From the UHGV virus genome UHGV-0077154: a DNA stretch of 13,459 bases; one strand, 5' to 3'. Source of the stretch: a virus. A program made the position numbers and the translations under genes. This document shows positions 1 through 13,459 of the stretch, piece by piece (the stretch's first letter is position 1; every line of letters starts with the position of its first letter). The notes below the pieces were generated by a model. The model had not been told where the DNA came from, ran no database searches, and was given only the letters and a program-made list of their open reading frames with translations.

Positions 1-54
1 GAACGAGAGCTTCCCAAGCTCTATACGAGGGTTCGATTCCCTTCGCCCGCTCCA
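1..54 (+). tRNA. glyU: 3' 54 nt of tRNA-Gly (anticodon CCC); the 5' ~20 nt lie outside the window
   Basis: Sequence gaacgagagcttCCCaagctctatacgagggttcgattcccttcgcccgctcca matches from memory the 3' part of enterobacterial tRNA-Gly1: anticodon stem-loop AGAGC/TTCCCAA/GCTCT, T-arm GAGGG/TTCGATT/CCCTT, acceptor 3' strand CGCCCGC, discriminator T, CCA at 52-54. One extra matching base (g at position 1) compared with the right-hand copy suggests this is the genuine gene. Confidence 0.8.
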
Positions 55-85
55 GTCTCCTGATAAATCAACAAGTTATGATTTA
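2..85. repeat. attL: direct repeat, 60 bp perfect (2-61) plus 24 bp imperfect extension (62-85)
   Basis: 2-61 is identical to 13376-13435. The following 24 bp (62-85 vs 13436-13459) differ at only 3 positions, so 55-85 matches 13429-13459 at 28/31. Confidence 0.8.
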
Positions 86-621: not shown

Positions 622-1257
622 ATGGCTGAGTATCATCCTGCGGTATTTAATGCTGAGGCTTTTAACTGTCCTTACTGCGGTGTATATGCCCGTCAGTTCT
701 GGCGCAATTTGTTTGGTAGCGGAAATGCGTTGGCAACTGTTGCGACTGCGTTCCGTATGTCAACATGTTCTCATTGTGATGAAGATTCTTATTGGTATGA
801 GGGCAATATGATGGTCCCTGCTGCTGGAAATGTGGAACTACCTAGTCCTGACATGCCTGAAGACTGCAAGTTCGACTATATGGAAGCAAGAAGCATCGTT
901 AATCTGTCCCCTAAAGGTGCTGCTGCACTCCTTCGCCTGAGTCTGCAAAAACTGATGGTCCACCTTGGCGAACCGGGTAAACATATTGACACGGACATAA
1001 AATCTCTCGTGGCTAAAGGCTTGTCTCCGTTGGTCCAAAGAGCCGCAGATATTTGTCGCATTGTCGGTAATCAGGCTGTTCACCCCGGAGAAATTAATCT
1101 TGATGATGACCCGCAATTAGCACATGGCCTCTTCAAATTACTGAATATTATTGTCACGGAACAAATTACCAGACCCAAAGAGGTTGAAAAGATGTTCAAT
1201 AGTATGCCTGAAAGGGCGTTGAAGGGTATTGAAAACAGAGATAAACCTAAAACTTAA
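622..1257 (+). CDS. Zn-ribbon plus DUF4145-like domain protein (211 aa), possible defence/abortive-infection cargo
   Basis: ORF with two CxxC pairs at the N-terminus (CPYC, CSHC). The C-terminal half has the pattern [13 protein letters not shown]...[33 protein letters not shown], which I recall as the DUF4145 signature (R-x-GN-x-a-H). Weak SD (AAGG about 12 nt upstream). Followed by a hairpin at 1263-1276. Confidence 0.6.
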
Positions 1258-2124: not shown

Positions 2125-2334
2125 CTATTTTTCGTTCTCTGATGCCTCAAACGTCTTGGAGTGAGGGCAGGACTGGGAGCGCGTCACCAGCGTGAACAGA
2201 TAAATGTTGCTTTCGTAAGTGCAAAGCCGTTTTCCGCCCTGTAACTCTTGTTCGTCGGGGTTGCTCATGGTGATTTTTCCTGCATGAGCCGCCAGCGGCA
2301 GCAGTGCCACAACAAATAGTAAAATTTTCTTCAT
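2125..2334 (-). CDS. Small signal-peptide protein (~69 aa), function unknown
   Basis: MKKILLFVVALLPLAAHA|GK... is a typical Sec signal peptide with an AHA-G cleavage site; the mature part has 2 Cys. The track ORF 2125..2340 begins with GTG; ATG at 2334 is the more likely start. Weak SD. Confidence 0.4.
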   Translation of the reverse strand: MKKILLFVVALLPLAAHAGKITMSNPDEQELQGGKRLCTYESNIYLFTLVTRSQSCPHSKTFEASENEK

Positions 2335-3325
2335 TTCCACAACCTGCCCCGTAGGTGTCCCGGCTCTTTATCCTCCAAGTTTACATTCTCCTGTTGAAAA
2401 TATCCCCGGCTCTGTTGGTGATCTGCTAGACCGTCAGCCCAGGCCCTCGGTGAAAAGCGCTTTTCTTCGCCAAATATCGCTACGTTATGCCTTCAGCGAC
2501 ACGCCTCACTGCAACAAGCAGTGCAGTTACACAATGCTGCTTTGGGCTGAGGCAAGGGAGATAACTTGATGTTTTGAAGTGCCTCTGTTCACTAATTGTA
2601 CAACCATTTAACATATTGTATCTTATAAGTACTTGACTGGAATGGTCAGGTATTGCTTTTCGGAGCGTTGATGCGAAGCGGAGTACACAACAACGATTTG
2701 ATCAACAGAAGGAAAGCATTCGGGAGGATTTGAGGTGAGTTCTCTTGTTCAAGGATTTTGGATGAGTTTGTCCGGTCACCACACAATTTCAGGTTTCAGG
2801 CCTTTGAAGCTGCCAGCGCATCTAACACGATGAAAGAGCATTTTTCTCTTTATCAGCAGAAAAAGAGCTACTACGGCGACGTTACCACAACGGGGTGAAG
2901 AACTATCGTCACCTGGCGAAATTCTCCCGCCCTTGCAGGTCACGGATACGTACCTTTTCCCGCACCAGCGCAAGCCTTCTCACCAATAGCCCCGTATGCT
3001 CCACCAGAAGCGCTACAGCGCGTCATCTCCACACAATTGTAAACTACACACCCATAGCACAGCGCCCCGCTGAGAAGCTCTGACACGCCCAGAAATGGAT
3101 GGTTTTTCGTTGATTTTGCGAAGAAAATTAATTTTTTCGGTATGGAAGGGCGGATCGGTAAACTGGTTTGACACGCATTTGGTTGACATATTTAACGCAT
3201 CCAGCCCCTGCGCGGGTTCGTTGTGTATCCGATACCATAACGATCACCACACCACACAGGCGAGCCAGTGACAACAGACAGGATTTTCTAGCAATTAACC
3301 GCAATTAACAGGTATTAAAGCTCTA

Positions 3326-3697
3326 TTATTTCCCGCCGAAAATCCAACCGATGATGGCACCGATTATCGCAGAGCGGGTCTCACCTGCTGCTCCTTTGAG
3401 AACGTTAATAACTGCATCGCCTGCACCAGGTGCCTGCTGTTGAAGTAAATTCAAACCACGAGGTGTTAACTTGGCGGCGGTATCCATGTCGGTTGAAGAG
3501 ATTATCTCCGTGTAACCCATATCGCTGAGAGCCTGGAGTGTGTTGCAAAGCAGGTCAATCTGAGTTCTGTCTCCTCTGGGCTTCCAGCCGAAGTCTGAAA
3601 ATTCGAAAGAAGAGTAAGCCGGATAGTCCGCAAACAGTTTCACCAGGATTCCAGTTGCCATCTCGTTAAAGCTGTCTTTGCCTTGGACGAATTCCAT
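3326..3697 (-). CDS. Hypothetical protein (123 aa) with C-terminal Gly-rich hydrophobic tail (tail-anchored?)
   Basis: Good SD (AAAGGAAA, about 8 nt upstream of ATG on the minus strand). C-terminus SAIIGAIIGWIFGGK looks like a single TM/GxxxG segment. Transcribed divergently from the iteron/promoter control region. Confidence 0.6.
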   Translation of the reverse strand: MEFVQGKDSFNEMATGILVKLFADYPAYSSFEFSDFGWKPRGDRTQIDLLCNTLQALSDMGYTEIISSTDMDTAAKLTPRGLNLLQQQAPGAGDAVINVLKGAAGETRSAIIGAIIGWIFGGK

Positions 3698-3821
3698 AAT
3701 GTTTCCTTTTGTTCACTGATTGAACGAGGTTACTTACTTACCGCTGGAAGTGCCAGCAAGAAGGGATGACGCTGTGCTGTTAATCACTAGGTGAGGGGGT
3801 GTCTTCTACCAGAGGGGAGGC

Positions 3822-3916
3822 CATTGGTAAAGAATCTTAACTAACGTTAGTAAAGATCCTTAACCAGCCATTAGTAAAGAATCTTAACTAACCATTGGTA
3901 AAGATACTTAACCGTA
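3822..3916. repeat. Four tandem ~24-bp iterons (consensus about CATTG-GTAAAGA-ATCTTAAC), followed by an AT-rich stretch (3917-3970)
   Basis: GTAAAGA recurs at 3827, 3850, 3874 and 3898 (spacing 23/24/24 bp), with conserved flanks cattgGTAAAGAatcttaac. Downstream AT-rich DNA contains TAGATCA x2 and CTATATCA x2. Confidence 0.7.
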
Positions 3917-3985
3917 CTATATCACTTACTAGATCATCTTTAGATCACTGCCTATATCAGTAAAAACATTAAGGTCAAAGACAGA

Positions 3986-4001
3986 TTGAACATGCGTTCA
4001 A
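3986..4001. promoter_or_regulatory. Inverted repeat TTGAAC-ATGC-GTTCAA, operator-like
   Basis: 6-bp arms are exact reverse complements with a 4-bp spacer; located in the divergent control region. Confidence 0.35.
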
Positions 4002-4296
4002 TTGTTGGAGTTGTTAGGTGTTATGTAGACAGGCTTCGCCTGTTTACACTCTGTGTGGAAGACAAGCGCAAGCGCGTCAGTCCAATGTGGATCGAGCACG
4101 GCGCAGAGGAGCTTTAAACGCGACGTAACTCCCCCCTTGGAGGGGCGGCGCACCCCCCTCAACCCTGCGCTCTAACAACATCTCTAGAGTCCTCTATCGC
4201 GTTCTGAGCGTCTTTCTCTTATTGTTGGTGACTTTGTACCGTTCCGCTTACAGCGTTGAATCTGAAGCGTCTGAGAGCGTTTTGTGATTACGGGGC

Positions 4297-4410
4297 TTGA
4301 CAAAGAAAATGTATGTGTATAAGGTTGCGGGGTATTGACACAAAACATTTATATCTCTTTATTCATTAAATGAGTTATCGGTTGACAAAGAAACTAATTT
4401 ACTATAAAAT
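4297..4410 (+). promoter_or_regulatory. Three tandem TTGACA-containing repeats/promoters upstream of the rightward operon
   Basis: TTGACAAAGAAA at 4297-4308 and 4382-4393, TTGACACAAAAC at 4335-4346. The third has a good -10 (TAAAAT at 4405-4410, 17-bp spacer); the first has TATAAG at 4318-4323. All are oriented toward the CDS at 4469. Confidence 0.55.
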
Positions 4411-4468
4411 ATATATTATCAAATGAGATGATTTTATGACTAAACAATAACTTAAATAGGAGAGATAC

Positions 4469-4897
4469 ATGGGGAAACCTGTTCTGTTCGATTTCTCGAG
4501 CGCCACTGCCTCAGAGATTGTCGCTGCAATCGATGCAAAAATTACCACAGCTCAAAATCTGCACGCCTTCCGCACTCGTATGGGTGGTGCCAAGAAAGCC
4601 GATAAGCTCTATCCAGCTACTCGCGAAGCACTGAACATCATTAAACGCCTGCGTCAGCAAGCGAAAGACGCAAAAATCATCCGGGATATTCTTAAACCGT
4701 ACTCAGCAGAGTTGGCAAAAGGCCGTGATGTTATGGAAATCATTGAACCAGTGCTGTCTGCCTGGCGTGTCTATTACGCCTCTCATGGCATTGGTTTGAT
4801 GAATGAGCAGATCCTCCTGTTGAAAATGATTGAGGCGGGCGGTGAACTCGAAGGTATTACCGGAAAACCCATTCCCGAACTGACCACAACCGAATAA
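4469..4897 (+). CDS. Hypothetical protein (142 aa), first gene of rightward operon
   Basis: Strong SD AGGAGA with a 5-nt spacer to ATG; no family recognised. Confidence 0.7.
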   Translation: MGKPVLFDFSSATASEIVAAIDAKITTAQNLHAFRTRMGGAKKADKLYPATREALNIIKRLRQQAKDAKIIRDILKPYSAELAKGRDVMEIIEPVLSAWRVYYASHGIGLMNEQILLLKMIEAGGELEGITGKPIPELTTTE

Positions 4898-5072: not shown

Positions 5073-5264
5073 ATGATTGTGAAACTGTCACTAGACGATG
5101 AAACATATGCAATTTTACGCGAAGAATCTGACCGTTTGGGGATGCCAGTTCCGAGGATGATCCGGAACATGTGCCAGAACCTGGCGAAACACATTCAGAA
5201 ACGCAATGAACAACCACTGACGAACCCACAGGGAGAACAACATGACAGAGACAGTAGAAGCTAA
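5073..5264 (+). CDS. Ribbon-helix-helix-like small DNA-binding protein (~61-63 aa)
   Basis: IVKLSLDDETYAILREESDRLGMPVPRMIRNM fits the beta-strand plus two-helix pattern of CopG/Arc/MetJ-type RHH proteins. GGAG lies 8 nt upstream of GTG at 5079, which may be the true start rather than ATG at 5073. Confidence 0.55.
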   Translation: MIVKLSLDDETYAILREESDRLGMPVPRMIRNMCQNLAKHIQKRNEQPLTNPQGEQHDRDSRS

Positions 5265-5886
5265 TCTGCCAGACGAACAGGACGGCACTTTTGATCGCAA
5301 TTATACCGAGATTAAGCGCTTGAAAGTGTTGGTTGCCGACGATGGAACTAAAATTCCGTTCAGCGCGAACATGAAAGTAGTCTACGCCTACCTCTACACC
5401 TTCCAGACAAATAAAGAGCGGCGGAACTACCCTGAGCCAATTTATCCTAATATGGAAATAATCGCGTGGGAAAATGGCATTACTAAACCCACGGCGCAAA
5501 AGGCTGTGGATGATTTGATGCGGGCGGGGGTGTTGATTAAGGACCAAATTCAGGTTGGGAGCGGGTTTAAGTCCAACAATTACGTTGTGTTGAAACCCTC
5601 GAAAGTGGTGGCGCGTGGCGTCACTCCACCGCATCCAAATGCTTCTAAATATTCAACTGCCGAGGAGAGCGGTAAGAATGAACAAAAACGTGCTGTGGTG
5701 GAACCTGCCGCGCCTGTTGCTGGAAAACCAGACGGCATACCTGTTGTGGATATTCCTGTCGATGCTGATGTACCTGCCGATGATGATGCGGTGATCGGAG
5801 ACTTTAGTGATCCTTACCTTGATGCTGAAGTAAAAGAATGGCAGAAACAAAAACATAGTGGAGGATTGAATTGTGTGAACACGTAA
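5242..5886 (+). CDS. Putative winged-helix-like DNA-binding protein with acidic C-terminal tail (214 aa); candidate iteron-binding initiator or regulator
   Basis: SD GGGAGAA 4-5 nt before ATG; overlaps the upstream gene by 23 nt. Segment MEIIAWENGITKPTAQKAVDDLMRAGVLIK resembles a wHTH; C-terminus is D/E/P-rich (DIPVDADVPADDDAVIGDF). Function is inferred only. Confidence 0.6.
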   Translation: MTETVEANLPDEQDGTFDRNYTEIKRLKVLVADDGTKIPFSANMKVVYAYLYTFQTNKERRNYPEPIYPNMEIIAWENGITKPTAQKAVDDLMRAGVLIKDQIQVGSGFKSNNYVVLKPSKVVARGVTPPHPNASKYSTAEESGKNEQKRAVVEPAAPVAGKPDGIPVVDIPVDADVPADDDAVIGDFSDPYLDAEVKEWQKQKHSGGLNCVNT

Positions 5887-6347
5887 GCGTTGAACTGACC
5901 GCAGATGAAGAACAAAAGCTATCTCGCCTTTTCTCCGTCCTGGAGAAACCGACATATAAATCCCGATCCAAACCTTCCGATCCGGAAACACAACGCAAAG
6001 CCCGTTTATTGCTTAATCGTGGATTTTCACCGCATATTGTCGCTAATACCCTAGATCTGCCGTTCGCTGAAGTCTGGCGGCTCGCACGTCAAAAACAAGC
6101 GGTGACCTGGGCGATGATGACACCGACAGCCCGGACAGAATTTGTCCGTGAAATGTGGTCACATCGGATGCACCCGGAACAGATCCGCAAGCGTTGCGAT
6201 GGTCTGTCATACGTCAGTCTGAGATATTACCTGCATAACGCCGGGATCACTGACGCTGAAATGTTGGGTTACTACCCAGACGTGTTCGTGAATATCTGCA
6301 AGCTGCCGACAGTGAAGAAGAAGCGCACTAAGTGTAAGGCCCGTTAG
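5871..6347 (+). CDS. Hypothetical basic protein with HTH-like segment (158 aa)
   Basis: TTG start 6 nt after GGAGG (5860-5864), overlapping the upstream gene end (coupled translation). KARLLLNRGFSPHIVANTLDLPFAEVWRLARQ is HTH-like; lysine-rich C-terminus. Could be a regulator or a small-terminase-like DNA-recognition protein; not resolved. Confidence 0.55.
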   Translation: MCEHVSVELTADEEQKLSRLFSVLEKPTYKSRSKPSDPETQRKARLLLNRGFSPHIVANTLDLPFAEVWRLARQKQAVTWAMMTPTARTEFVREMWSHRMHPEQIRKRCDGLSYVSLRYYLHNAGITDAEMLGYYPDVFVNICKLPTVKKKRTKCKAR

Positions 6348-6349
6348 GG

Positions 6350-6365
6350 TGAACGTTAACGTTCA
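6350..6365. promoter_or_regulatory. 16-bp perfect palindrome TGAACGTTAACGTTCA
   Basis: Exact self-complementary 16-mer immediately after the stop codon at 6347; shares the TGAAC/GTTCA half-site with the palindrome at 3986-4001. Confidence 0.4.
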
Positions 6366-6511
6366 TCACTTTGTGACCGGATCGCCAATCCAAATAATCC
6401 CACATCGGGAGCCAATGAACTTTGAAGCAATCCTTTCTTACCTGCCCGTTGTCTGGCTGGCGTATCGCTGCGTCCGTGATGGGCTGATCCTACTTTGGAG
6501 ACACCATAAAA

Positions 6512-6892
6512 ATGACATTGAACAGCATTAAAAATGCTCTGTTTGCCGCTATGCACGGCATGACACCGGAGGAATACGAACTCCAAAAGGCGCGGGACAA
6601 TCTCAAGAGCGTCACCGATAACTTTCTGGATCAACATCCGGAGTTGCTCAAATCAGCCTCGTCTGACACCCCCACGGATAAACGGGGCGAAGCCCTCTCG
6701 CCAATGCGAGACACCTTTGGTGCTGAACAACGGATTAAAAAATCTTTGGGCGCTGATAGCCGTCCGGCGGTAAGTCATACCGCTGATCACATCGATCCTG
6801 AAATGCTGGCGAAAGCTAAAGCAGCGGCTGCTGCTCTCGCAAAATCTGACCCTGATCGTTACGGCAATATCATCAAGCAGCAGGGGGTGTGA
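6512..6892 (+). CDS. Hypothetical protein (126 aa)
   Basis: ORF with GGAG about 11 nt upstream; its stop overlaps the start of the next gene (GTGATGA), suggesting translational coupling. Ala/Lys-rich C-terminus. Confidence 0.55.
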   Translation: MTLNSIKNALFAAMHGMTPEEYELQKARDNLKSVTDNFLDQHPELLKSASSDTPTDKRGEALSPMRDTFGAEQRIKKSLGADSRPAVSHTADHIDPEMLAKAKAAAAALAKSDPDRYGNIIKQQGV

Positions 6893-9036
6893 TGGCGAAT
6901 GGCAATATCATAGTGACTGAAACCGTAAACGAGGTGACATGGTCTGTCGATCGGACAGCCTTCGGTCGCGCCCTGAAAGCTGTTAAATCCATCAAGGCTG
7001 CTCATGAGAAACCAGCTAAGGCGCTTGAGAAGGCCCAGAAGCGGACCGTCCAGAGTGAAGGCAAAGCCGCACTAGCAGCAGCGAAAGCCCAGACAGCGAA
7101 GCTACGCCAGGCTGAACAATTGTCTAAACAGCAACAGAAACAAGCTCAGATACAAGCCAAAATGGAGCGGGACGCAGTAGCCCACGCCAATAAAATGACC
7201 TCATTACAGGCGCGTCAGTTATCCCAACAGGAACAGGCAGCACGTCAGAATGCCCGTTTAGCAGCAATATCTGAAAAGGTGAGACAGGCGAGTCGCTCCC
7301 GCGCGATGACCTACACCCCAAACATGGGCGGTCAACATTACGATCCTGGTCTTGTTTCCCGTCAGACTGACGCAATGAACCGTGGTCACGGCGCTGTTGC
7401 TGCCGACATCGCAGCCACCAAAAAGGCGATGGCCCTGGAGGAGAAGCGCCAGCGTGAGAAAGAGGCAGGACTTAAGCGTGAGGTGACTTATTACAACAGT
7501 TTGCGCCGTAGCGCTTTGACTCTGGCAAACGTGAACGGCGCTGACGTTGCAACCCGTTATAAAGCGATCAGTGCAGCAAAAGAGGCACTCAAAGCCCAGA
7601 AAGAAGAGCGTTATACGGTCGAAGAGACCCGTTTCGAAATGGCCCGTATCACTACAGAATTACGCAAGCAGGCTCGTCTGCAACAACGTATTACCCGTGA
7701 GCAGAAAGCCGCAGGTGTTCGTGCTGGTCGTGTACGCACAGAAAGCCGTGGTGGAAGTGTAGGTCTGGCTGCCGCTGGTGTTGTTGGTGGTGCGGCGTTA
7801 GTAGGTAGTATGGGCGTTTCTCGTGTTGGTCAGACCCTTCAGGGAAGCCTTGAGCGTTCTCGCGATGTGAAAAAACTCCAGCAGTATGGGATCAGCAACC
7901 TTGAGTTCGCAGCACTTCAGGATCTATCAATGAGCCGTGTTGGTTACTCACTGAGTGCTGACAAGCTGGCTGACCTCAACAAGGACACAACCGAAAAGGC
8001 CGGGGAATTGCTGAATACTGGCTCTTTCAAACGTAACAAGAAAACTGGACAGGTGAATTTCAGCGGCGGTGGTGAGTTTGCAGATATCATCAATAACGTA
8101 CTGACCTCCACCAACGGCAACCAGAAGGTAGCCCAAAAGGTGATCGGGGAACTGCAAAAACTGGATTTTCCAACATTTATCACTTATCTAAAGCAATTAC
8201 AGAAAACTTTCGGCTGGACTGATCGACAGGTGCGACACCTGGCCGAGGCTGTGAATGATGGTTCGGTCTTCCTCGAAGTGTTCAATGATGAGGGGCAGGG
8301 ACTTATCCAGCGTATGAATCAACTCGCTTCTGAAGGATGGACCCTATCTGATGCACAGCAGGCCAACCTTGATAAGCTGGCAGCTTTGGGTGCTGAGTAC
8401 AGTCGCGTGCAGATGTCGCTTGCTGACCACTTCAGCGCCAGCTTCGTGCAGGGTCTGGGAGAATATGCAGCTAATACTGACACTCTACGTCAGAAGATGA
8501 CTGGACTGATCCCAATTTCCGATGCTCTCGGCGTTGCCCTTGGTGAGCTAACCACCAACATTCTCTCCTTCGCTGGTCGAGTCGGTGAAGAACTCAAGAA
8601 AGGCGCGACACTGCCGGATGCAGTCTACAACACCGTAGTGGATGACTCTGCAAATAGCACCGCCGATTGGATTAAGGAAAAGACCGGATTTGATCCACGC
8701 AGCATCGGTCAGACGCTCAAACAGATTTACCCGTGGCTGGATAGTTTCGCTCCGAGCAATATCGGCTCAGGCACGGCGTATAACGATCCAGCGCTAGCGT
8801 TGAATGTTCCTGGTTTCAACTCAATACAACCCCAGCAACCAACGTTTACGATTCCGACAATTGACAGCATGACGCAGCGACAGCCGATTCCTGTTGCGGT
8901 CACTGGCGAAGCTGAGATTAAACTCTCACCGCTTGATATTAACGTGAATGACGGCGCTATTAACGGTTTGATTGATACAAAACTGAGGAGCTATGAGCAG
9001 GCACAGAACAACATGATCCTTGGTATTGCTCAATGA
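6889..9036 (+). CDS. Large coiled-coil protein with central Gly/Ala-rich hydrophobic segment (715 aa); tape-measure-like or scaffold-like structural protein
   Basis: N-terminal ~270 aa are A/K/Q/R-rich heptad-like repeats (KAQTAKLRQAEQLSKQQQKQAQIQAKMERD). Central segment GGSVGLAAAGVVGGAALVGSMGV is TM-like. Sits immediately upstream of the D/E-like capsid genes. ATG at 6892 is the more likely start (GGGGG 4 nt upstream). Assignment is by architecture only. Confidence 0.55.
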   Translation: MMANGNIIVTETVNEVTWSVDRTAFGRALKAVKSIKAAHEKPAKALEKAQKRTVQSEGKAALAAAKAQTAKLRQAEQLSKQQQKQAQIQAKMERDAVAHANKMTSLQARQLSQQEQAARQNARLAAISEKVRQASRSRAMTYTPNMGGQHYDPGLVSRQTDAMNRGHGAVAADIAATKKAMALEEKRQREKEAGLKREVTYYNSLRRSALTLANVNGADVATRYKAISAAKEALKAQKEERYTVEETRFEMARITTELRKQARLQQRITREQKAAGVRAGRVRTESRGGSVGLAAAGVVGGAALVGSMGVSRVGQTLQGSLERSRDVKKLQQYGISNLEFAALQDLSMSRVGYSLSADKLADLNKDTTEKAGELLNTGSFKRNKKTGQVNFSGGGEFADIINNVLTSTNGNQKVAQKVIGELQKLDFPTFITYLKQLQKTFGWTDRQVRHLAEAVNDGSVFLEVFNDEGQGLIQRMNQLASEGWTLSDAQQANLDKLAALGAEYSRVQMSLADHFSASFVQGLGEYAANTDTLRQKMTGLIPISDALGVALGELTTNILSFAGRVGEELKKGATLPDAVYNTVVDDSANSTADWIKEKTGFDPRSIGQTLKQIYPWLDSFAPSNIGSGTAYNDPALALNVPGFNSIQPQQPTFTIPTIDSMTQRQPIPVAVTGEAEIKLSPLDINVNDGAINGLIDTKLRSYEQAQNNMILGIAQ

Positions 9037-9132: not shown

Positions 9133-9161
9133 TTGTAAATGATAATCATTCGTGTTAAAAT
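9133..9161 (+). promoter_or_regulatory. Sigma70-like promoter (TTGTAA-17-TAAAAT) overlapped by a Fur-box-like element
   Basis: AATGATAATCATT at 9138-9150 matches the central 13 of the 19-bp Fur consensus GATAATGATAATCATTATC (14/19 overall); -35 at 9133-9138, -10 at 9156-9161. Confidence 0.4.
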
Positions 9162-9167
9162 AATATA

Positions 9168-9542
9168 CAAGGTGAATTACAACAGCCAAATGTTTTTCCC
9201 TTCTCCTTAGGAATCAAAGTGCGCTTTTCCCAGAGCGCCTTTTCTCATACAGCCAATATCCGCACCCTCTCACGGTAAGGTTAGGCCATTGCCGCTGGCT
9301 GTATCAGAAAAGCATCGCAGAGCGATTAGCCAGCAGGCTAACCCGTTCTCGTGTGTAGAAAATTTCCACCTAAGGTGGATTTGCCAAAAGTCCTGTCCTC
9401 CTCGGCGGGCTGTCAGCCGGACACTAACGGCATCAGGTGGCAACGTTTTTGGGTCTCCTTACCCATTCTTTGGAGCGTTGCCGCCTCCTCATTCCTACCA
9501 GTGAAATTCACACCGGACGACTCTCCGTCCGGTCACTTTTTT
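9168..9542 (+). ncRNA. Candidate non-coding transcript/leader between the Fur-box promoter and a strong terminator; possibly a short ~80-nt form ending at a weak hairpin (9221-9246)
   Basis: No credible ORF here (the track ORFs are R/P-rich with no SD). Several hairpins: TTAGCC-AGCA-GGCTAA, TCCACC-TAA-GGTGGA, GCGCT-N8-AGCGC followed by CTTTTCTC. Ends at the intrinsic terminator 9513-9542. Confidence 0.3.
9513..9542 (+). terminator. Rho-independent terminator
   Basis: Stem CCGGACG (9513-9519), loop ACTCTC, stem CGTCCGG (9526-9532), then TCACTTTTTT. Confidence 0.7.
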
Positions 9543-9610
9543 CATCGGAACAATTCTAAAGGCTGGCCCTGTCGCCGTTTACGGCTCAAGCAGGCGCTGG
9601 CCTTTTGTTT

Positions 9611-9622
9611 ACATAGCTATGT
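9611..9622. promoter_or_regulatory. 12-bp perfect palindrome ACATAGCTATGT about 22 bp upstream of the D-like gene SD
   Basis: Exact self-complementary 12-mer; candidate operator/activator site for the capsid operon. Confidence 0.35.
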
Positions 9623-9645
9623 GAAATTTAACGGGAGTTAATTAT

Positions 9646-9987
9646 ATGAAAATGGGAAGCCTTGAGCGCTCTTACAATGACGTGATCGCGTATGCAGCCG
9701 ATCCGAATTTTGACCGCAAGACTATTACTGTCGATCTAGCTGTAGAAGTCCAGCCGGGTAGTTGCATTACCAGCACTGGAGCTGCTTATGTCTCTGGTGA
9801 TGACTGCCTGCTGGTCCTGAGCCACCACAGGGCCGAAGATGCTGCTCATATCATCGTTGCTGATCGCGGGATTTACATCAAACAAGACACCATCACCGCT
9901 GTTATGGGCGCTACCGCTGGCGCTAATGCTATTGCCGCACTCACCAAAACGGGCGCAATCCGTACTAGCGCACCGGACGCAGAATAA
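9646..9987 (+). CDS. Lambda gpD-like head decoration protein (113 aa), tentative
   Basis: Size (113 aa vs 110 for lambda D), position directly upstream of the E-like gene, and a Gly/Ala/Thr-rich beta-type composition (TITVDLAVEVQPGSCITSTGAAYVSGDD...TAGANAIAALTKTGAIRTS). SD GGGAG 8 nt before ATG. Confidence 0.45.
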   Translation: MKMGSLERSYNDVIAYAADPNFDRKTITVDLAVEVQPGSCITSTGAAYVSGDDCLLVLSHHRAEDAAHIIVADRGIYIKQDTITAVMGATAGANAIAALTKTGAIRTSAPDAE

Positions 9988-10005
9988 TAATAAGGAGAAG
10001 ACAAC

Positions 10006-11040
10006 ATGGGACTATCAACCAATTTCAGCTACGCGGATTACACCAACACCTTTGTGAACATGGATGCAAAGAACACTTTGCTGTCCACGCTTAATGTTTT
10101 CAGTGATCGTCAGACTTCTGCAAGTCCGAAGGTGAGCCTCGATATCATTGATGAAGTCGCTCAGAAGGTGGCAAGCTCTGTTAATCGTTACGGTTCAGAG
10201 TGGTCAACCATTCCTAAGCGTAGCGCTAGCAATCACCTGATTGAAGCTCCACTTTATGCTTTTCAAGACCGGATTACAGCGGCAGACGTGCAACCATATC
10301 GCAAACCAGGCTCCGACCTGCAAATGTCTGTAATGGATGCGGTCACTTCTTCTGCTGTCGCAATGCACGATAAGTACATGCGTACTAAAGAGAAAATTTT
10401 CGCTGACGCACTCTTCCGAAATACTGTCGAAGCGACCTACACCCAGCAGCCGATCATTTCCTGGGAAGATGAATTTGGATACCAACAGGCAACCGGAACG
10501 ATCAAAACCAGCGTTAGCTCTGGTGACCCACTTCGCAGCCTCGATGATGCAGTAACCGCTGCTAAAGTGCGCATGGGGGGCCTGGCTGGTCAGCTTGATG
10601 GATTTATCCTGTTTGCAGGTAGCAATGTTTATCGCGGCATTAAGTATCACCCTGATGTTCGTCAGAATGTTCAGTTCGGTGTGCTTGATCGGGATGTTCT
10701 GTTTAATAAAGAAGTGCTTCCGGCATTCTCAACATTCATCATTGAAAATGTTCGAGTGGTGGAGGTCACGGATCAGGCACTTTACGGAATTGGTCCGGAT
10801 GAATCCTTCCTGGTTCCACGTTTCAGCCGCCCACTGTCCTCTGATATTGCTCTACCTTTCGGTTATGTAGCAACGGCTACCAGCCGCAATCTTGATCTGG
10901 CATTTGCTGATCCGGTTGATTTCCGTATCTGGAGCGTACAGGACAAGTTTAAGAACGTGGAGCTATTCGCGGAAAGCTCAATCTTGCCTGTGGTGTACCG
11001 TCCGGATTTCGTTACAAAACTGACGAACGACGCAGCGTAA
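10006..11040 (+). CDS. Major capsid protein, lambda gpE-like family (344 aa)
   Basis: Strong SD AAGGAGAAG. Length 344 aa vs 341 for lambda E. C-terminal region ...VVYRPDFVTKLT resembles lambda E ...LADPDEFVSVQLA. Gene order decoration-then-capsid as in lambda. A hairpin at 11053-11074 (TGGGGC-N10-GCCCCA) follows the stop. Confidence 0.6.
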   Translation: MGLSTNFSYADYTNTFVNMDAKNTLLSTLNVFSDRQTSASPKVSLDIIDEVAQKVASSVNRYGSEWSTIPKRSASNHLIEAPLYAFQDRITAADVQPYRKPGSDLQMSVMDAVTSSAVAMHDKYMRTKEKIFADALFRNTVEATYTQQPIISWEDEFGYQQATGTIKTSVSSGDPLRSLDDAVTAAKVRMGGLAGQLDGFILFAGSNVYRGIKYHPDVRQNVQFGVLDRDVLFNKEVLPAFSTFIIENVRVVEVTDQALYGIGPDESFLVPRFSRPLSSDIALPFGYVATATSRNLDLAFADPVDFRIWSVQDKFKNVELFAESSILPVVYRPDFVTKLTNDAA

Positions 11041-11121
11041 GACAGCGGATTTTGGGGCTGACTATTTGGCCCCACCGTGAAGAATGGCCTGAAAAGGCGA
11101 GGCAAAGAAGAGGTGATTACT

Positions 11122-11325
11122 ATGAAAATTCAATTTCAGACTAACAACGGCTTCCCGTTGCTGACAGTTGCAGACGAGCGCGTTTTAGATTTTCTGAACG
11201 TTAGCGCAGTGTGTCGGTTCCTGAAGGTTCCGCGTTCCTCGTTCATGATGGACGTTGAGCAATACGGGCTTGAAAAGGCAATCAGTGAAGCCCTGCTGAA
11301 GTTAAGAAAGAATAAAAATTGTTAA
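11122..11325 (+). CDS. Hypothetical small protein (67 aa)
   Basis: ATG at 11122 preceded by GAGGTGA with a 5-nt spacer; the track ORF's upstream Met at 11077 has no SD. No family recognised. Confidence 0.5.
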   Translation: MKIQFQTNNGFPLLTVADERVLDFLNVSAVCRFLKVPRSSFMMDVEQYGLEKAISEALLKLRKNKNC

Positions 11326-11509: not shown

Positions 11510-11719
11510 ATGAACTTTGATATGCGTACAAACCAAAATTGTGCATCTTTTTTTAACCCAGCAACCAAGGCGTTTGTCGTCGTCGATTCGTTTGACAACT
11601 ACGAGTTCGATGTTCGTGCTGGTACTTTATCACGCACTGAATTTGTAGGCACAATCACAGCTTCGAACGATGAAGAGTTGAACAAGAAATTAGCTGAGAT
11701 CACGGCTGCTCATATATGA
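11510..11719 (+). CDS. Hypothetical small protein (69 aa), cargo cassette gene 1
   Basis: Excellent SD AGGAGG with a 5-nt spacer; AT-rich codon usage; stop overlaps the next start (ATGA). Confidence 0.65.
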   Translation: MNFDMRTNQNCASFFNPATKAFVVVDSFDNYEFDVRAGTLSRTEFVGTITASNDEELNKKLAEITAAHI

Positions 11720-12090
11720 TAACTCAACAGCAAATTGATGATTTAGTTGCAGATATTAACGATATCTTAGAAGAAGATAGAGCTAGACTGAAGATGTCAT
11801 TTCATTTTGCTGTTGATAGACTCAATGATCAGCGTAACAAACCTCCAATCACGCTAGATGAATTGAGAGTGATTTTTACAAATTTCATTGAACAACACTT
11901 GCAGACCATTTTAGGCAAAGATGAGGGGTTCTCCTTCACTATTAAGTGCCAGAAATCAGGTATTGCTATACCTTGCGCCATAGAGCATGAACTTGAGATT
12001 GGTGCAACGTGGGTAGTACAGCAAGTGATCACCATCATGCGGAATCCGAACTTTAACCCATACCATGGTGATGTCATCTTCGAAATCTAA
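11716..12090 (+). CDS. Hypothetical protein (124 aa), cargo cassette gene 2
   Basis: Translationally coupled to the upstream ORF; AT-rich; followed immediately by a strong intrinsic terminator. Confidence 0.65.
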   Translation: MITQQQIDDLVADINDILEEDRARLKMSFHFAVDRLNDQRNKPPITLDELRVIFTNFIEQHLQTILGKDEGFSFTIKCQKSGIAIPCAIEHELEIGATWVVQQVITIMRNPNFNPYHGDVIFEI

Positions 12091-12092
12091 GT

Positions 12093-12118
12093 AAAAAGGC
12101 GCAATAGCGCCTTTTTTT
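12093..12118. terminator. Bidirectional rho-independent terminator (AAAAAGGCGC-AATA-GCGCCTTTTTTT)
   Basis: Perfect GGCGC/GCGCC stem with a 4-nt loop, flanked by an A-run and a T-run; sits between the convergent cassette gene 2 and integrase 3' ends. Confidence 0.8.
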
Positions 12119-13313
12119 ACAAATCCGGATAACACGCCAACTCGACATACTCCGATAGTTCCTTCATCCCTGGCCCTTTGCTGTAGGTTCTGAATGCTTC
12201 GGTTTTCGCTTTTTGTTCGGTATGTCCAGTGATGGCTCCGATCCGTTGTTCTGGCACCCCTGCACGGTCTAAGCAGGTGATGAACATTCCCCGTAAGCTG
12301 TGAAAACATTGCCGATCTGTAGCGGTTGGCAATGTGCTGTCACGTAGCCGGGTAAACTTTTGGCTGTACCACGGACCCCGCTTACCATCCTTCCGAATGA
12401 TGTTATTAGACTGAGCCAGAAGATATTCACCGCTGTTATTTGCCAGATGCTTATCAACAATCCCCATCAGCAGCGAGTGGATCGGAACATACCGCACCCC
12501 GGCTACAGTCTTGGACTTGCTGACAAAGAAACATCTGACACCCTCCAACATTACAATTTCATCCCGCTTGATGCTGGCGATCTCATCAAGTCGCATTCCT
12601 GAATACAGCCCAATCAGTATGACATCGCGTAGAACGTCATCCGCTTCTCTGACAAGTGTTTGCAATTGTTCAGGTTCAAACGGCTGATAACTTTCTATCG
12701 TGCGACGTGCTTCGAGGTTATGACCGTGAAACGGGTTACTGTCGGGGATTGCGTCATATCGACGTTTGGCGAACTCGTACAGACTCCCTAAAGAGGTTAG
12801 CCAGTTTTGCACGGTCTGCGGTGCTGCCTTTTTCTGTTGGCCTTCAATGAAGTCTGTAACCGTTCTGCGTCCTATCTTGTTCAGACTAATATCAACTTTA
12901 CCGATACTCTGGAGAAATACTTCCACCGCTCGCGCGGATTTGCTGAGTGTGGAAAATGCCCGACGTTCACTATAAACCGTCATGTATTCATCACGGATGA
13001 CTGCCAACGTTGGGATAGGGGAGACTGCTACAGGCGTACTCTTGGCCTGTTTGATTGTGGTGTGGAGTGTGGTGATCGCATTCTGGATGCGAATGTCTTC
13101 CCGATCAGGATTCAACAGGGCTTTCAGATTGTTGAACTCAATCAACATGTGATTTCTGAAGTGACGAGCCTTAAGGATGTCTTTTGTCCCGGTGGATTTT
13201 CGCCAGGCTCGTTTGTTGTCAAACAGGTGACGCATGTACGCAGGTACAAAGACCTGAAAGATCCATACGCCCGAATGACTTTGAAAAAGATACTGATTGT
13301 TCTTGATAGACAT
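12117..13313 (-). CDS. int: Tyrosine recombinase / phage-type integrase (398 aa)
   Basis: C-terminal catalytic motifs: GMRLDEI (Arg box I), HSLRGMFITCLDRAGVPEQRIGAITGH (H-x-x-R box II), FRTYSKG (catalytic Tyr). SD AGAGGA about 8 nt upstream of ATG; gene lies next to attR. Confidence 0.9.
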   Translation of the reverse strand: MSIKNNQYLFQSHSGVWIFQVFVPAYMRHLFDNKRAWRKSTGTKDILKARHFRNHMLIEFNNLKALLNPDREDIRIQNAITTLHTTIKQAKSTPVAVSPIPTLAVIRDEYMTVYSERRAFSTLSKSARAVEVFLQSIGKVDISLNKIGRRTVTDFIEGQQKKAAPQTVQNWLTSLGSLYEFAKRRYDAIPDSNPFHGHNLEARRTIESYQPFEPEQLQTLVREADDVLRDVILIGLYSGMRLDEIASIKRDEIVMLEGVRCFFVSKSKTVAGVRYVPIHSLLMGIVDKHLANNSGEYLLAQSNNIIRKDGKRGPWYSQKFTRLRDSTLPTATDRQCFHSLRGMFITCLDRAGVPEQRIGAITGHTEQKAKTEAFRTYSKGPGMKELSEYVELACYPDL

Positions 13314-13375
13314 GATTTCGATCCTCTAAAATCACGCCATCAGGTACAGCCATATGTACAATGTCGGGATGGAGT

Positions 13376-13459
13376 AACGAGAGCTTCCCAAGCTCTATAC
13401 GAGGGTTCGATTCCCTTCGCCCGCTCCAGTCTCCTCATAAATTAACAAGTTATAATTTA
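13376..13459. repeat. attR: partial tRNA-Gly 3' copy (60 bp perfect to 13435) plus imperfect extension to the window end
   Basis: Identical to 2-61; the sequence upstream (caatgtcgggatggagt) does not match the tRNA 5' half, so this is the truncated copy. Confidence 0.8.

Follow-up and report, generated by a model that had tools for sequence, protein, structure and literature searches.

Satellites of bacteriophages have found several ways to obtain small heads, and the two known systems closest to the locus described here, SaPIbov5 with its Ccm protein and the cf-PICIs, each differ from it: the element fits neither. SaPIbov5 is a cos-type staphylococcal island without portal or terminase, which encodes in Ccm a homologue of the HK97-fold major capsid protein (MCP) of its helper and uses it for satellite-sized heads (PMC8569155, PMC5052747). 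Ccm forms only the pentamers, and the remaining shell is helper capsid protein. The cf-PICIs are integrative elements of ~10-15 kb, Enterobacterales included, whose small capsids are satellite-encoded (bioRxiv 10.1101/2022.09.08.507074; PMC10085698). PMC10690885 describes them as encoding MCP, protease, portal, head-tail connectors, TerS/TerL and HNH and as stealing tails only. P4 and PLE, Gram-negative satellites of 11-18 kb, also make small heads, but they encode no MCP and reshape that of the helper with an external scaffold (Sid in P4, TcaP in PLE). P4 further supplies a capsid-stabilising decoration protein, Psu, and PLE parasitises a lytic myovirus, ICP1. Finally, E-family MCPs that work with a trimeric beta-tulip cement protein are found in lambda (gpE with gpD) and in the Vequintavirinae (phiTE, 9cul; rV5-like ECP26), where the two genes are adjacent, decoration gene (Dec) first and MCP second, within a full module of terminase, portal, protease and scaffold.

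Here we describe a Dec-MCP pair from which that module is missing. The window, that is the whole stretch of 13,459 nt that was analysed (UHGV-0077154), holds a complete integrative element of 13,374 bp with 84-nt tRNA-derived direct repeats at both ends. We propose that Dec and MCP are the head-shell module of a ~13-kb satellite, which would build its own small shell on the portal of a helper phage and leave filling and tailing to the helper, a proposal to which we give about an even chance. The ends of the element and its mobility and replication functions are the following:

2..85, plus strand: attL, an 84-nt direct repeat with the 3' part of a tRNA gene, 96% identical to 13376-13459
3820..3916, no strand assigned: iteron-like array, putative replication origin, with 4 repeats at ~24-nt spacing in a gene-poor stretch
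5242..5886, plus strand: Rep-like protein of the HTH_36/DUF6945 type, with weak PHROG matches to replication initiation O-like and DnaD-like families
12117..13313, minus strand: tyrosine integrase (Pfam Phage_integrase and DUF6538; phrog_1, E 1e-35)
13376..13459, plus strand: attR, the right copy of the 84-nt repeat, with a weak Rfam tRNA match at 13365-13424

The attL copy has an Rfam tRNA match at 1-51, its 5' end cut off, and matches the tRNA-Gly of a Salmonella record. The E. coli homologue of the Rep-like gene is annotated DUF6945, and weak HTH_36 matches are present in two related loci (L002 and L006), the first of which also keeps the iteron-like array.

The element belongs to a family of ~25 related loci, which share its compact architecture with intact ORFs across many genera (Enterobacter, Escherichia, Klebsiella, Raoultella, Citrobacter, Rahnella, Biostraticola and Winslowiella); clinical genomes of Enterobacter, Klebsiella and E. 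coli contain islands of this family. Carriers include E. coli 2016C-3878 (NZ_CP029747.1, island at 684.0-697.6 kb) and Enterobacter hormaechei/asburiae. From att to att its members measure 12.4-13.6 kb, with or without the tape-measure gene described below and whatever their cargo. One variant (L002) is circular, 12.79 kb in size, and carries ParA and no integrase; its circularity follows from a second locus (L003) that bridges its two ends, and no terminal overlaps of contigs were found. Matches in IMG/VR are metagenome or prophage-region contigs and as such are not proof of packaging. In the literature open without subscription we found no published satellite with this gene set and no description of such an architecture, and these loci are apparently an undescribed family of enterobacterial phage satellites. 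The context supports a satellite-like nature on several counts: the integrase between its att repeats, the Rep-like gene and its iterons, the cargo of defence genes, the narrow size range and the short peptides copied from phage structural proteins. A decaying prophage, its head genes surviving by chance, might also leave phage-derived genes beside an integrase at a tRNA site, and the MCP gene of one Klebsiella copy is interrupted by IS1. Such decay is very hard to reconcile with precise att ends, uniform sizes, a replication module of the family's own with its circular ParA variant, and an architecture that recurs intact from genus to genus; nor does it account for the selection on the MCP and its distance from known phages, to which we now turn, and we give a remnant hardly any credence.

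Two adjacent genes make up the shell module:

9646..9987, plus strand: head decoration (cement) protein, Dec, 113 aa, predicted gpD-type beta-tulip fold, starting at ATG after the Shine-Dalgarno sequence GGGAG
10006..11040, plus strand: major capsid protein of the E family (HK97 fold), 344 aa, without delta domain, with the Shine-Dalgarno sequence AAGGAG

An earlier note on this DNA had read these ORFs, found again at 9646-9987 and 10006-11040, as a lambda D-like decoration protein and a lambda E-like capsid protein, to be given up if profile searches placed the 344-aa protein outside the E family. The searches did the opposite. The protein matches Pfam PF03864 (Phage_cap_E) from end to end, its residues 15-340 aligning with positions 8-328 of the 329-position profile, with 52.6 bits (cut-off 22.9) and E 4.6e-14. 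The likeness to lambda E holds at the level of Pfam family and fold only. It also matches PHROG 29, 'major head protein'. Its relatives with solved structures, by PDB sequence search, are the PhiTE MCP 9cul (E 6e-6), phi92 gp124 and the MCP of ICP1 (8g1r), the helper of PLE, a top match within the same structural clade. Profile comparisons align it with the rV5-like MCP over 313 columns (probability 97.7) and with the phi92-like MCP (probability 96). An AF2 model built from a 23-sequence alignment is of low confidence (pLDDT 46.6); its best 10 Foldseek matches are all HK97-fold MCPs, at TM-scores of 0.31-0.36, which we count as weak support because the model is poor. The MCP is the slowest-evolving and most conserved gene of the element (dN/dS 0.03-0.08).

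For Dec we found no sequence match in Pfam, PHROG, NCBIfam or PDB, and Pfam is equally without a match for the solved phiTE Dec and the rV5-like Dec. Its predicted fold, however, is gpD-like and agrees with the trimeric proteins of the gpD type, as the lambda D reading had it; the best matches in the BFVD viral structure library are entries named 'head decoration protein'. Aligned by hhalign with the rV5-like Dec of phage ECP26, it covers 95 columns, of which 32% are identical, with E 1e-4 and a probability of 58%. Dec is under purifying selection (dN/dS 0.11-0.39). Gene order and protein sizes agree with those of the helper phages proposed below. Compared with the pairs of lambda and the Vequintavirinae, the MCP is only ~22% identical and the likeness of Dec lies in its fold and a weak profile similarity; nevertheless, Dec and MCP are confirmed as a real capsid-shell pair. 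Searched by tblastn against 50,697 phage records, the MCP finds a single match, 21.8% identical, and Dec and the other core proteins find none, which rejects a recent capture from a sequenced phage and also argues against a prophage remnant.

HK97-fold shells without portals exist as encapsulins, and encapsulins do appear far down the Foldseek list of the MCP, so that a domesticated compartment with a purpose other than DNA transfer has to be considered. Those matches are weak (E 0.05 or worse) and come from the same poor model, the element has no gene for a cargo enzyme, and the presence of an E-family MCP together with a cement protein of the gpD type, in a mobile element whose head and tail peptides mimic those of a helper, speaks for a viral shell. 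A non-viral compartment is accordingly very improbable. A second possibility concerns the composition of the shell. The island MCP lies in the same structural clade as the MCPs of the candidate helpers and might join the helper protein, for example at pentons, and force a smaller triangulation number, for which SaPIbov5 Ccm with phage phi12 is the precedent (PMC8569155, PMC5052747). However, mixed capsomer contacts are less plausible at an identity of 22% to the helper MCPs, no other gene of the element is as constrained as the MCP, and the element has kept its own cognate Dec, whose expected binding at the three-fold sites of the lattice would be simpler to account for if that lattice were island MCP. 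We therefore consider co-assembly unlikely. In contrast to Ccm, which belongs to another MCP lineage and to a Gram-positive siphovirus system, the island MCP probably forms the whole lattice; SaPIbov5 also lacks the decoration protein, the scaffold-mimic adaptor and the tape-measure gene that the present element has.

The absence of portal and terminase, already asserted in the earlier note, holds for the complete att-to-att element in profile searches of the window ORFs. Family searches found no portal, terminase or protease among these ORFs or in the ~25 related loci, and the portals and TerL proteins of phiTE and ECP26, used as tblastn queries, had no match in 20 related loci. Neither head-tail connectors nor TerS were detected in the window or the related loci, and the cf-PICI gene set is thus absent; apart from the tape-measure homologue, no tail genes were found in the element. 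The longest window ORF without assignment has 272 aa at most, and the remaining ORFs are too short for a portal or terminase. Without these functions, and with no protease or tail genes either, the element cannot make virions alone. Where a cf-PICI brings its packaging kit, this one is limited to MCP, Dec, adaptor and tape-measure homologue, and it must steal portal, terminase, protease and connectors as well. As for the other known satellites, no window ORF has a family match to Sid, Psu, a Delta/Ogr-type activator, an alpha primase-helicase or TcaP, and no homologues of AlpA, TerS, Cpm or Rpp were detected among these ORFs. The classical-PICI gene set is represented by the integrase and the Rep-like gene, and small unknown ORFs could hide analogues of the others. 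No cos/pac site and no TerS-like or Rpp-like specificity factor was identified in the element, and mimicry of phage DNA (cos/pac) in non-coding DNA was rejected when blastn of 2341-4468 against phages gave no match.

The earlier note had missed three companions of the Dec-MCP pair, a long structured leader, to which we return below, and two genes that bear on the identity of the helper, a tape-measure homologue and a scaffold-mimic gene:

6512..6892, plus strand: adaptor gene o126, other alleles of which bear the N-terminal motif of the helper's scaffold-position protein
6889..9036, plus strand: tape-measure-protein homologue, 715 aa, of mosaic origin and accessory in the family (PHROG tape-measure families, best E 3e-17)

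The tape-measure homologue carries two different phage signatures. At the N-terminus, 72% of residues 3-38 (36 aa) agree with the start of the tape measure of Mydovirus BIS47; further on, residues 312-569 show 31% identity to the protein in tape-measure position in phi92-like Klebsiella phages. The gene is missing from three loci (L003, L006 and L009), and distant family members have PF20155 TMP_3 proteins. Adaptor alleles other than the window's carry the motif IKEKGIALCH.AQGYSAN.RPVSL, which reaches 83% identity, across 29 aa, with the N-terminal end of a phage protein whose gene sits between portal and Dec in 225 phage records. Over residues 2-41 of ECP26_83, the allele of the E. coli island (L001) shows 70% identity, and the alleles of L003, L015 and L030 are flagged PF26210 / phrog_2970. 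In phiTE the corresponding helper protein, phiTE_211, has no Pfam or PDB relative and falls into phrog_2970, a family without assigned function; we call it a scaffold from synteny and one depositor's note. All 87 clusters of the adaptor family span 83-158 aa and none is phage-sized. The dN/dS of the adaptor gene is 0.22-0.36, and in L030 tape measure, adaptor, Dec and MCP follow one another contiguously. The window's own allele differs from the others in its C-terminal half, which is unmatched. A helper match for this allele was sought and rejected (no phage tblastn match at E up to 10), as was a similarity to the phi92-like scaffold-position protein, which leaves the tape-measure N-terminus as the sole mimic peptide linking the window element to a helper. 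The MCPs of the window and of the E. coli island L001 are 97% identical and their adaptor motifs are different; thus, what the motif follows is not the satellite's own MCP but something else.

These similarities all point to large lytic myoviruses of the rV5, phiTE, Mydovirus and phi92 types, and the lambdoid helper implied by the earlier note finds no support. Lambda gpE is not among the PDB sequence matches of the MCP, and the lambda likeness is confined to the gpD fold. The MCP is only ~22% identical to those of the candidate helpers, and its fit with the portal, scaffold, protease, terminase and neck of such a phage is putative.

The capsid genes are preceded by a conserved promoter and a long leader region:

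9133..9161, plus strand: conserved sigma-70 promoter with extended -10 (TTGTTG/TTGTAA ... TGnTAAAAT) for the leader-Dec-MCP unit, from a promoter scan
9168..9645, plus strand: long structured RNA preceding Dec, a 5' leader or a non-coding RNA

In 16 loci the promoter motif recurs between -515 and -620 relative to the start codon of Dec, and in the window its spacer contains a Fur-box-like palindrome, AATGATAATCATT. A T4-type late promoter was also considered and rejected, TATAAATA being absent from the window. The leader folds with an MFE of -180.7 kcal/mol (z = -7.8 against shuffles). It has a conserved, covarying core at ~9386-9500 and CU-rich loops, and a terminator scan finds at 9512-9533 a hairpin of the terminator type that runs into a stretch of T. 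In the covariation analysis 92% of cells are paired, a share that falls to 34-52% once the partners are slid; helix 3 reaches 100%, and 4 of its 5 pairs have changed on both sides. Between close relatives the leader varies in length by amounts not divisible by three (window, 478 nt; L001, 437 nt), and we treat the region as non-coding. No known RNA family was matched in Rfam at E up to 1, and the conserved leader is a candidate new cis-regulatory RNA.

How might these pieces work together? The gene identities, the completeness and conservation of the element, its constrained size, the missing portal and terminase, the helper-mimic peptides and the structured leader are our observations, and from them we infer that the helper induces the element and that the shell is assembled on its portal and filled by its terminase, as well as the T number and what adaptor and tape measure do. 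The element would lie silent at its tRNA att site until a lytic myovirus of the rV5, phiTE, Mydovirus or phi92 type infects, upon which it would excise and replicate through integrase, Rep-like protein and iterons. The conserved promoter would then drive Dec and MCP through the long structured leader with its terminator, and the island's E-family MCP and gpD-type trimers would assemble into a small shell fit for ~13 kb, perhaps of about T=4 by analogy with P4, SaPI and PLE. This shell would form on the helper's portal, the connection being made by the adaptor with its copied scaffold-position N-terminal peptide, of which the shared motif would bind a helper component and the N-terminal half of the adaptor the island MCP; the helper terminase would fill the head and helper tails would join it. 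In members like the window, the satellite might contribute its own tape-measure homologue to the building of these tails. As portals and tails are diverted, the yield of the helper would also fall.

That loss could also be the whole point. MCP, Dec, adaptor and tape-measure homologue might serve only to poison the assembly of helper heads and tails, by sequestering its portal, scaffold, chaperones or hub, and so protect the host population while the island itself stays unpackaged, a role close to the decoy capsid that the earlier note had offered as an alternative. The mimic peptides of the adaptor and the tape-measure homologue would suit a competitive inhibitor, the island bears bona fide defence genes, and interference of mobile elements with tail assembly is documented (PMC11364771). 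A pure decoy, however, leaves unexplained why divergent members with different cargo keep to the same size range, why MCP and Dec remain full-length and strongly constrained, and why the family maintains an autonomous replication module with integrase or ParA. Moreover, interference with the helper is a by-product of hijacking in all known satellites. We consider a decoy improbable; the mobility apparatus and the size constraint lead us to favour a transfer function, with interference as its by-product.

Extending the transfer reading to the whole family, we tentatively envision an undescribed group of enterobacterial satellites of large, strictly lytic myoviruses (Vequintavirinae, possibly Stephanstirmvirinae), standing between the PICI/P4 type and the cf-PICIs. 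Its members would make the entire lattice from an E-family MCP of their own that has diverged strongly, with its gpD-type cement protein, and capture the helper portal by means of a modular adaptor; the C-terminal peptide of this adaptor would be exchangeable and a copy of the scaffold-position N-terminus. Their own tape measure could replace that of the helper, and a new structured RNA leader of ~450 nt would gate the capsid genes. This is a possibility that we put forward with caution. If true, the family would fill a gap among satellite strategies, which so far comprise reshaping of the helper capsid (P4, SaPI, PLE), a single MCP paralogue (Ccm) and the full kit of the cf-PICIs. It would show, by a shell and a docking mimic peptide alone, how little it takes to own a capsid, its natural chimeras would make recognition between portal, scaffold and MCP testable, and it would be, as far as we searched the literature, the first satellite tied to rV5-, phiTE- or phi92-type lytic phages.

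Phage therapy and biocontrol make wide use of phages of these three types, with E. coli, Klebsiella, Enterobacter, Salmonella, Cronobacter and Pectobacterium as targets. The presence of the islands in clinical genomes together with their defence cargo means that they could blunt such phages and spread defence genes. Two regions of the window carry cargo:

622..1257, plus strand: RAZR / PD-T7-4 anti-phage defence gene (zinc finger and DUF4145/HEPN RNase; PADLOC PDLC04109)
11510..12090, plus strand: variable cargo slot of two genes between MCP module and integrase (phrog_14630, phrog_14518)

The RAZR gene matches PADLOC PDLC04109 over its full length at E 4e-98 and Pfam DUF4145; its function in anti-phage defence is taken from PMC13017515. 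In place of the two slot genes, the E. coli island has a GNAT gene and an Enterobacter locus (L034) has DarT/NADAR, which adds DarTG as further defence cargo of the family. Defence cargo of the RAZR and DarTG kind is typical of satellites.

The remaining features are smaller genes and a second promoter:

2125..2340, minus strand: conserved 71-aa protein whose N-terminus resembles a signal peptide, matching phrog_4641 (function unassigned)
4382..4410, plus strand: strong sigma-70-like promoter of the o142-to-tape-measure operon, TTGACA-17-TAAAAT, 11/12 matches, called from consensus match only
4469..4897, plus strand: core gene o142, 142 aa, without family match
5073..5264, plus strand: ribbon-helix-helix (CopG-like) small regulator, Pfam RHH_1 at E 0.007, below cut-off
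5871..6347, plus strand: o158, 158 aa, without significant family match
11077..11325, plus strand: small protein of 82 aa (67 aa from an internal ATG), 3' of MCP

The 82-aa protein has no family match in profile searches; its position is conserved, with weak similarity across loci, and it is possibly an excisionase-like HTH protein. A 95% identical copy of o158 is present in L001, and o142 occurs in all family loci tested. The ribbon-helix-helix regulator is conserved in the family, with its L015 copy annotated RHH_1 (weak), and the 71-aa protein is kept in six related loci (L001, L002, L009, L010, L012 and L013).

The window is one complete mobile element, flanked by 84-nt direct repeats lying 13,374 bp apart. 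Between them, a RAZR/PD-T7-4 defence gene is followed by a gene-poor stretch with four iteron-like repeats, a strong promoter and an operon of small conserved genes, whose members include an RHH protein and a replication-initiator-like protein. Then come the 126-aa "adaptor" gene o126, a tape-measure protein (TMP) homologue, a 600-bp gene-free gap, the genes for a decoration protein (Dec) and a major capsid protein (MCP), a small conserved gene, a two-gene cargo slot and a tyrosine integrase. The main features are:

2-85 and 13376-13459: direct repeats that include the 3' portion of a tRNA
622-1257, plus strand: RAZR/PD-T7-4 defence gene (PADLOC, E 4e-98)
6889-9036, plus strand: TMP homologue, 715 aa, mosaic
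9133-9161: capsid-gene promoter (promoter scan)
9168-9645: structured leader, 478 nt
about 9386-9500: conserved core of the leader
9512-9533: terminator-like hairpin and T-run (intrinsic-terminator-like)
9646-9987, plus strand: Dec, 113 aa, good Shine-Dalgarno
10006-11040, plus strand: MCP, 344 aa, good Shine-Dalgarno, adjoining Dec
11510-12090: cargo slot with two genes, phrog_14630 and phrog_14518

The earlier note had proposed that the adjacent Dec and MCP frames encode a lambda-like capsid shell without portal or terminase. Both frames lie where it placed them, and the pairing is borne out. The MCP matches Pfam Phage_cap_E over its full length (52.6 bits, cut-off 22.9), PHROG profile searches also include it in PHROG 29, and the top Foldseek matches of its AF2 model, a poor one (pLDDT 47), are all HK97-fold MCPs of the same clade. 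Dec has no match in any sequence-family search; its best matches in a viral structure library are head decoration proteins, and hhalign aligns it with an rV5-like decoration protein over 95 columns (32% identity, E 1e-4). Fold and Pfam family are as far as the label "lambda-like" goes; the solved sequence relatives of the MCP are the MCPs of PhiTE (E 6e-6), phi92 and ICP1. The MCP family profile aligns end to end with rV5-like (probability 97.7) and phi92-like (probability 96) MCPs, each at ~22% identity. Purifying selection acts on both genes, that of the MCP (dN/dS 0.03-0.08) being better conserved than any other in the element. The proposed absence also stands: family searches found no portal, terminase, prohead protease, connector, sheath, tube or baseplate look-alike among the window ORFs, the longest unassigned of which is at most 272 aa. 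That the shell might be an encapsulin-like compartment is at odds with the cement protein and the genomic context.

Among 50,697 phage records the best tblastn match to the MCP is 21.8% identical and Dec has none; by this measure no sequenced phage is close to the element. This distance from any phage speaks against a prophage remnant, as does conservation across a whole family. Related elements occur in 37 of 5,426 complete E. coli genomes (in strain 2016C-3878 the island adjoins thrW), in species representatives of Enterobacter, Citrobacter, Pseudenterobacter, Dryocola, Raoultella, Rahnella, Biostraticola and Winslowiella, and in many assemblies of Klebsiella, Enterobacter, Leclercia, Cronobacter, Serratia and Salmonella. 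They share a core of o71, o142, the RHH gene, a variable Rep, o60, a gene at the o126 position, a gap of ~600 bp, Dec, MCP and a small downstream gene. The recombinase differs, with several tyrosine-integrase clades and a serine recombinase in one locus (L015). One member (L002, ENA NODE_599, 12,790 bp) carries ParA and no integrase; this ParA variant (L002/L003) is circular (plasmid-like) or tandemly repeated, because one end of its 12.79-kb contig runs on into the other in an independent contig. More distant members (MCP profile E 1e-50 to 1e-101) show the same design, with TMP_3-domain proteins and, again, no portal or terminase. Some copies are decaying, as shown by a Klebsiella island (GCA_900452045.1; L033 10350-11524) in which an IS1 has inserted in the MCP gene.

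The best-supported reading is that the element is a phage satellite that would build its own capsid lattice from MCP and cement protein and draw on a helper myovirus for the rest, namely portal, terminase, protease, connectors and tail. Both its architecture and the evidence for helper mimicry are unusual as well as strong. Dependence on a helper, the make-up of the particles and what the adaptor, TMP homologue and leader do are inferred. The order of Dec and MCP and the sizes of both proteins are those of the candidate helpers, and the family is tied to large lytic myoviruses by this gene order and by two short, highly similar peptides, the TMP N-terminus and an adaptor motif.

The first peptide comprises the N-terminal 36-46 residues of the TMP homologue, which are 63-72% identical to the extreme N-terminus of Mydovirus/Vequintavirinae TMPs (for example, 72% over 36 aa with the 802-aa TMP of Mydovirus BIS47). 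The middle of the protein is 31% identical over ~255 aa to the TMP-position protein of phi92-like Klebsiella phages, and its C-terminal part shows a weak resemblance to siphovirus TMPs. Having kept helper-like termini, the homologue could enter helper tails. Its gene is present in only some members, and TMP_3 proteins recur in the distant ones.

The second peptide lies in the gene at the o126 position, flagged as PF26210 "Phage_phiTE_211" in an E. coli island (L001), the ParA variant and loci L015/L016, L023 and L030. These genes share the motif IK(E/S)(K/R)GIAL.H..QGYSAN.RP.SL, which recurs in 225 phage records (identity up to 83% over 29 aa) as the N-terminal stretch of a protein of 326-369 aa whose gene lies between those of the portal and of the Dec-MCP pair. 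One phi92-like genome labels the gene in this place "possible scaffold protein", and its neighbour there is an XkdF-type protease. In L030, TMP, adaptor, Dec and MCP are contiguous in that order, the last three mirroring the phages. Since the MCPs of the window and the E. coli island are 97% identical but the C-terminal halves of their adaptors are unrelated, the variable peptide tracks a factor external to the island, for which the helper is the simplest candidate. The window allele found no phage match, so the helper link of this particular element is its TMP N-terminus and its family membership. In the phages themselves (phiTE_211, at 6974-8083 of phage locus L017; ECP26_83, at 5983-6963 of phage locus L018), the N-terminal ~45 residues of these portal-to-Dec proteins are very strongly conserved across the 225 records, Campylobacter phages as well as those of Escherichia, Klebsiella and Pectobacterium among them, which points to a conserved interaction peptide in the assembly of their heads.

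In the satellite reading, the adaptor would join the island shell to parts of the helper, of which the portal is the most plausible. From att to att, members measure 13,374, 13,578, 13,117, 12,410 and 12,397 bp, a narrow range that holds despite differing cargo and with or without the TMP gene. A small head, about T=4 by analogy with P4, SaPIs and PLE, would impose such limits (12.4-13.6 kb). A pure decoy or defence role of the capsid genes would account for the mimic peptides, yet not for the limits on size, the presence of replication and partition modules or the strong constraint on a full-length MCP. Co-assembly of island and helper MCPs in the manner of Ccm (PMC8569155) is less attractive, given that the island has retained a cement protein of its own and that the two MCPs are only 22% identical.

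Compared with known satellites, the element lacks the portal, protease, terminase and connectors that define cf-PICIs and the Sid, Psu, delta and alpha of P4-like elements, and holds only part of the classical PICI gene set. Its way of working would come closest to that of SaPIbov5 Ccm or of a stripped-down cf-PICI, from which it differs in its MCP lineage, in its own Dec, scaffold-mimic adaptor and TMP homologue, and in its probable lytic-myovirus helpers. Searches of full texts open without subscription turned up no report of such a satellite, or of any satellite tied to Vequintavirinae or Stephanstirmvirinae.

The gap upstream of Dec is itself conserved. In every enterobacterial member, a conserved sigma-70 promoter with an extended -10 (TTGTTG-N17/18-TGnTAAAAT) lies ~470-620 nt upstream of the Dec start codon and precedes a highly structured leader of 440-590 nt. 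Against shuffled controls the window leader is much more stably folded (z = -7.8), and it displays CU-rich (CCUCC) loops. The helices of its core covary: 92% of cells pair, a share that drops to 34-52% once the pairing partners are slid, and one 5-bp helix is 100% paired with both sides changed in four of its five pairs. Matching no Rfam family, the leader is a candidate new cis-regulatory or non-coding RNA that would gate capsid-gene expression, possibly by read-through or antitermination upon helper infection. The promoter spacer also holds a palindrome, AATGATAATCATT (9136-9154), which agrees with the Fur-box consensus at ~14 of 19 positions by hand count. Similar sequences occur in loci L012, L013 and L021 and are absent from L002, L006 and L009; they could reflect iron- or Fur-dependent control in some lineages, or chance.

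The 13-kb element spares ~1.7 kb for gene-free DNA (2341-3325 and 3698-4468), which holds the iterons and the strong promoter and resembles no phage DNA; it could harbour a packaging site or more RNAs. Equivalent gaps in L002, L006 and L009 measure 1.8-2.3 kb. Next to it, on the minus strand (2125-2340), a 71-aa protein with a signal-peptide-like N-terminus and two cysteines (phrog_4641) is a core gene kept in almost every member.

Cargo varies between the MCP module and the integrase: in this slot the E. coli island (L001 15445-16212) has a GNAT acetyltransferase and an Enterobacter island (L034 13815-15168) has DarT with a NADAR partner, the DarTG defence system. A second slot adjoins attL. 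According to PMC13017515, assembly around phage portal rings activates RAZR, an HEPN RNase with a zinc finger; such a portal sensor is notable in a portal-less element that presumably relies on a helper's portal.
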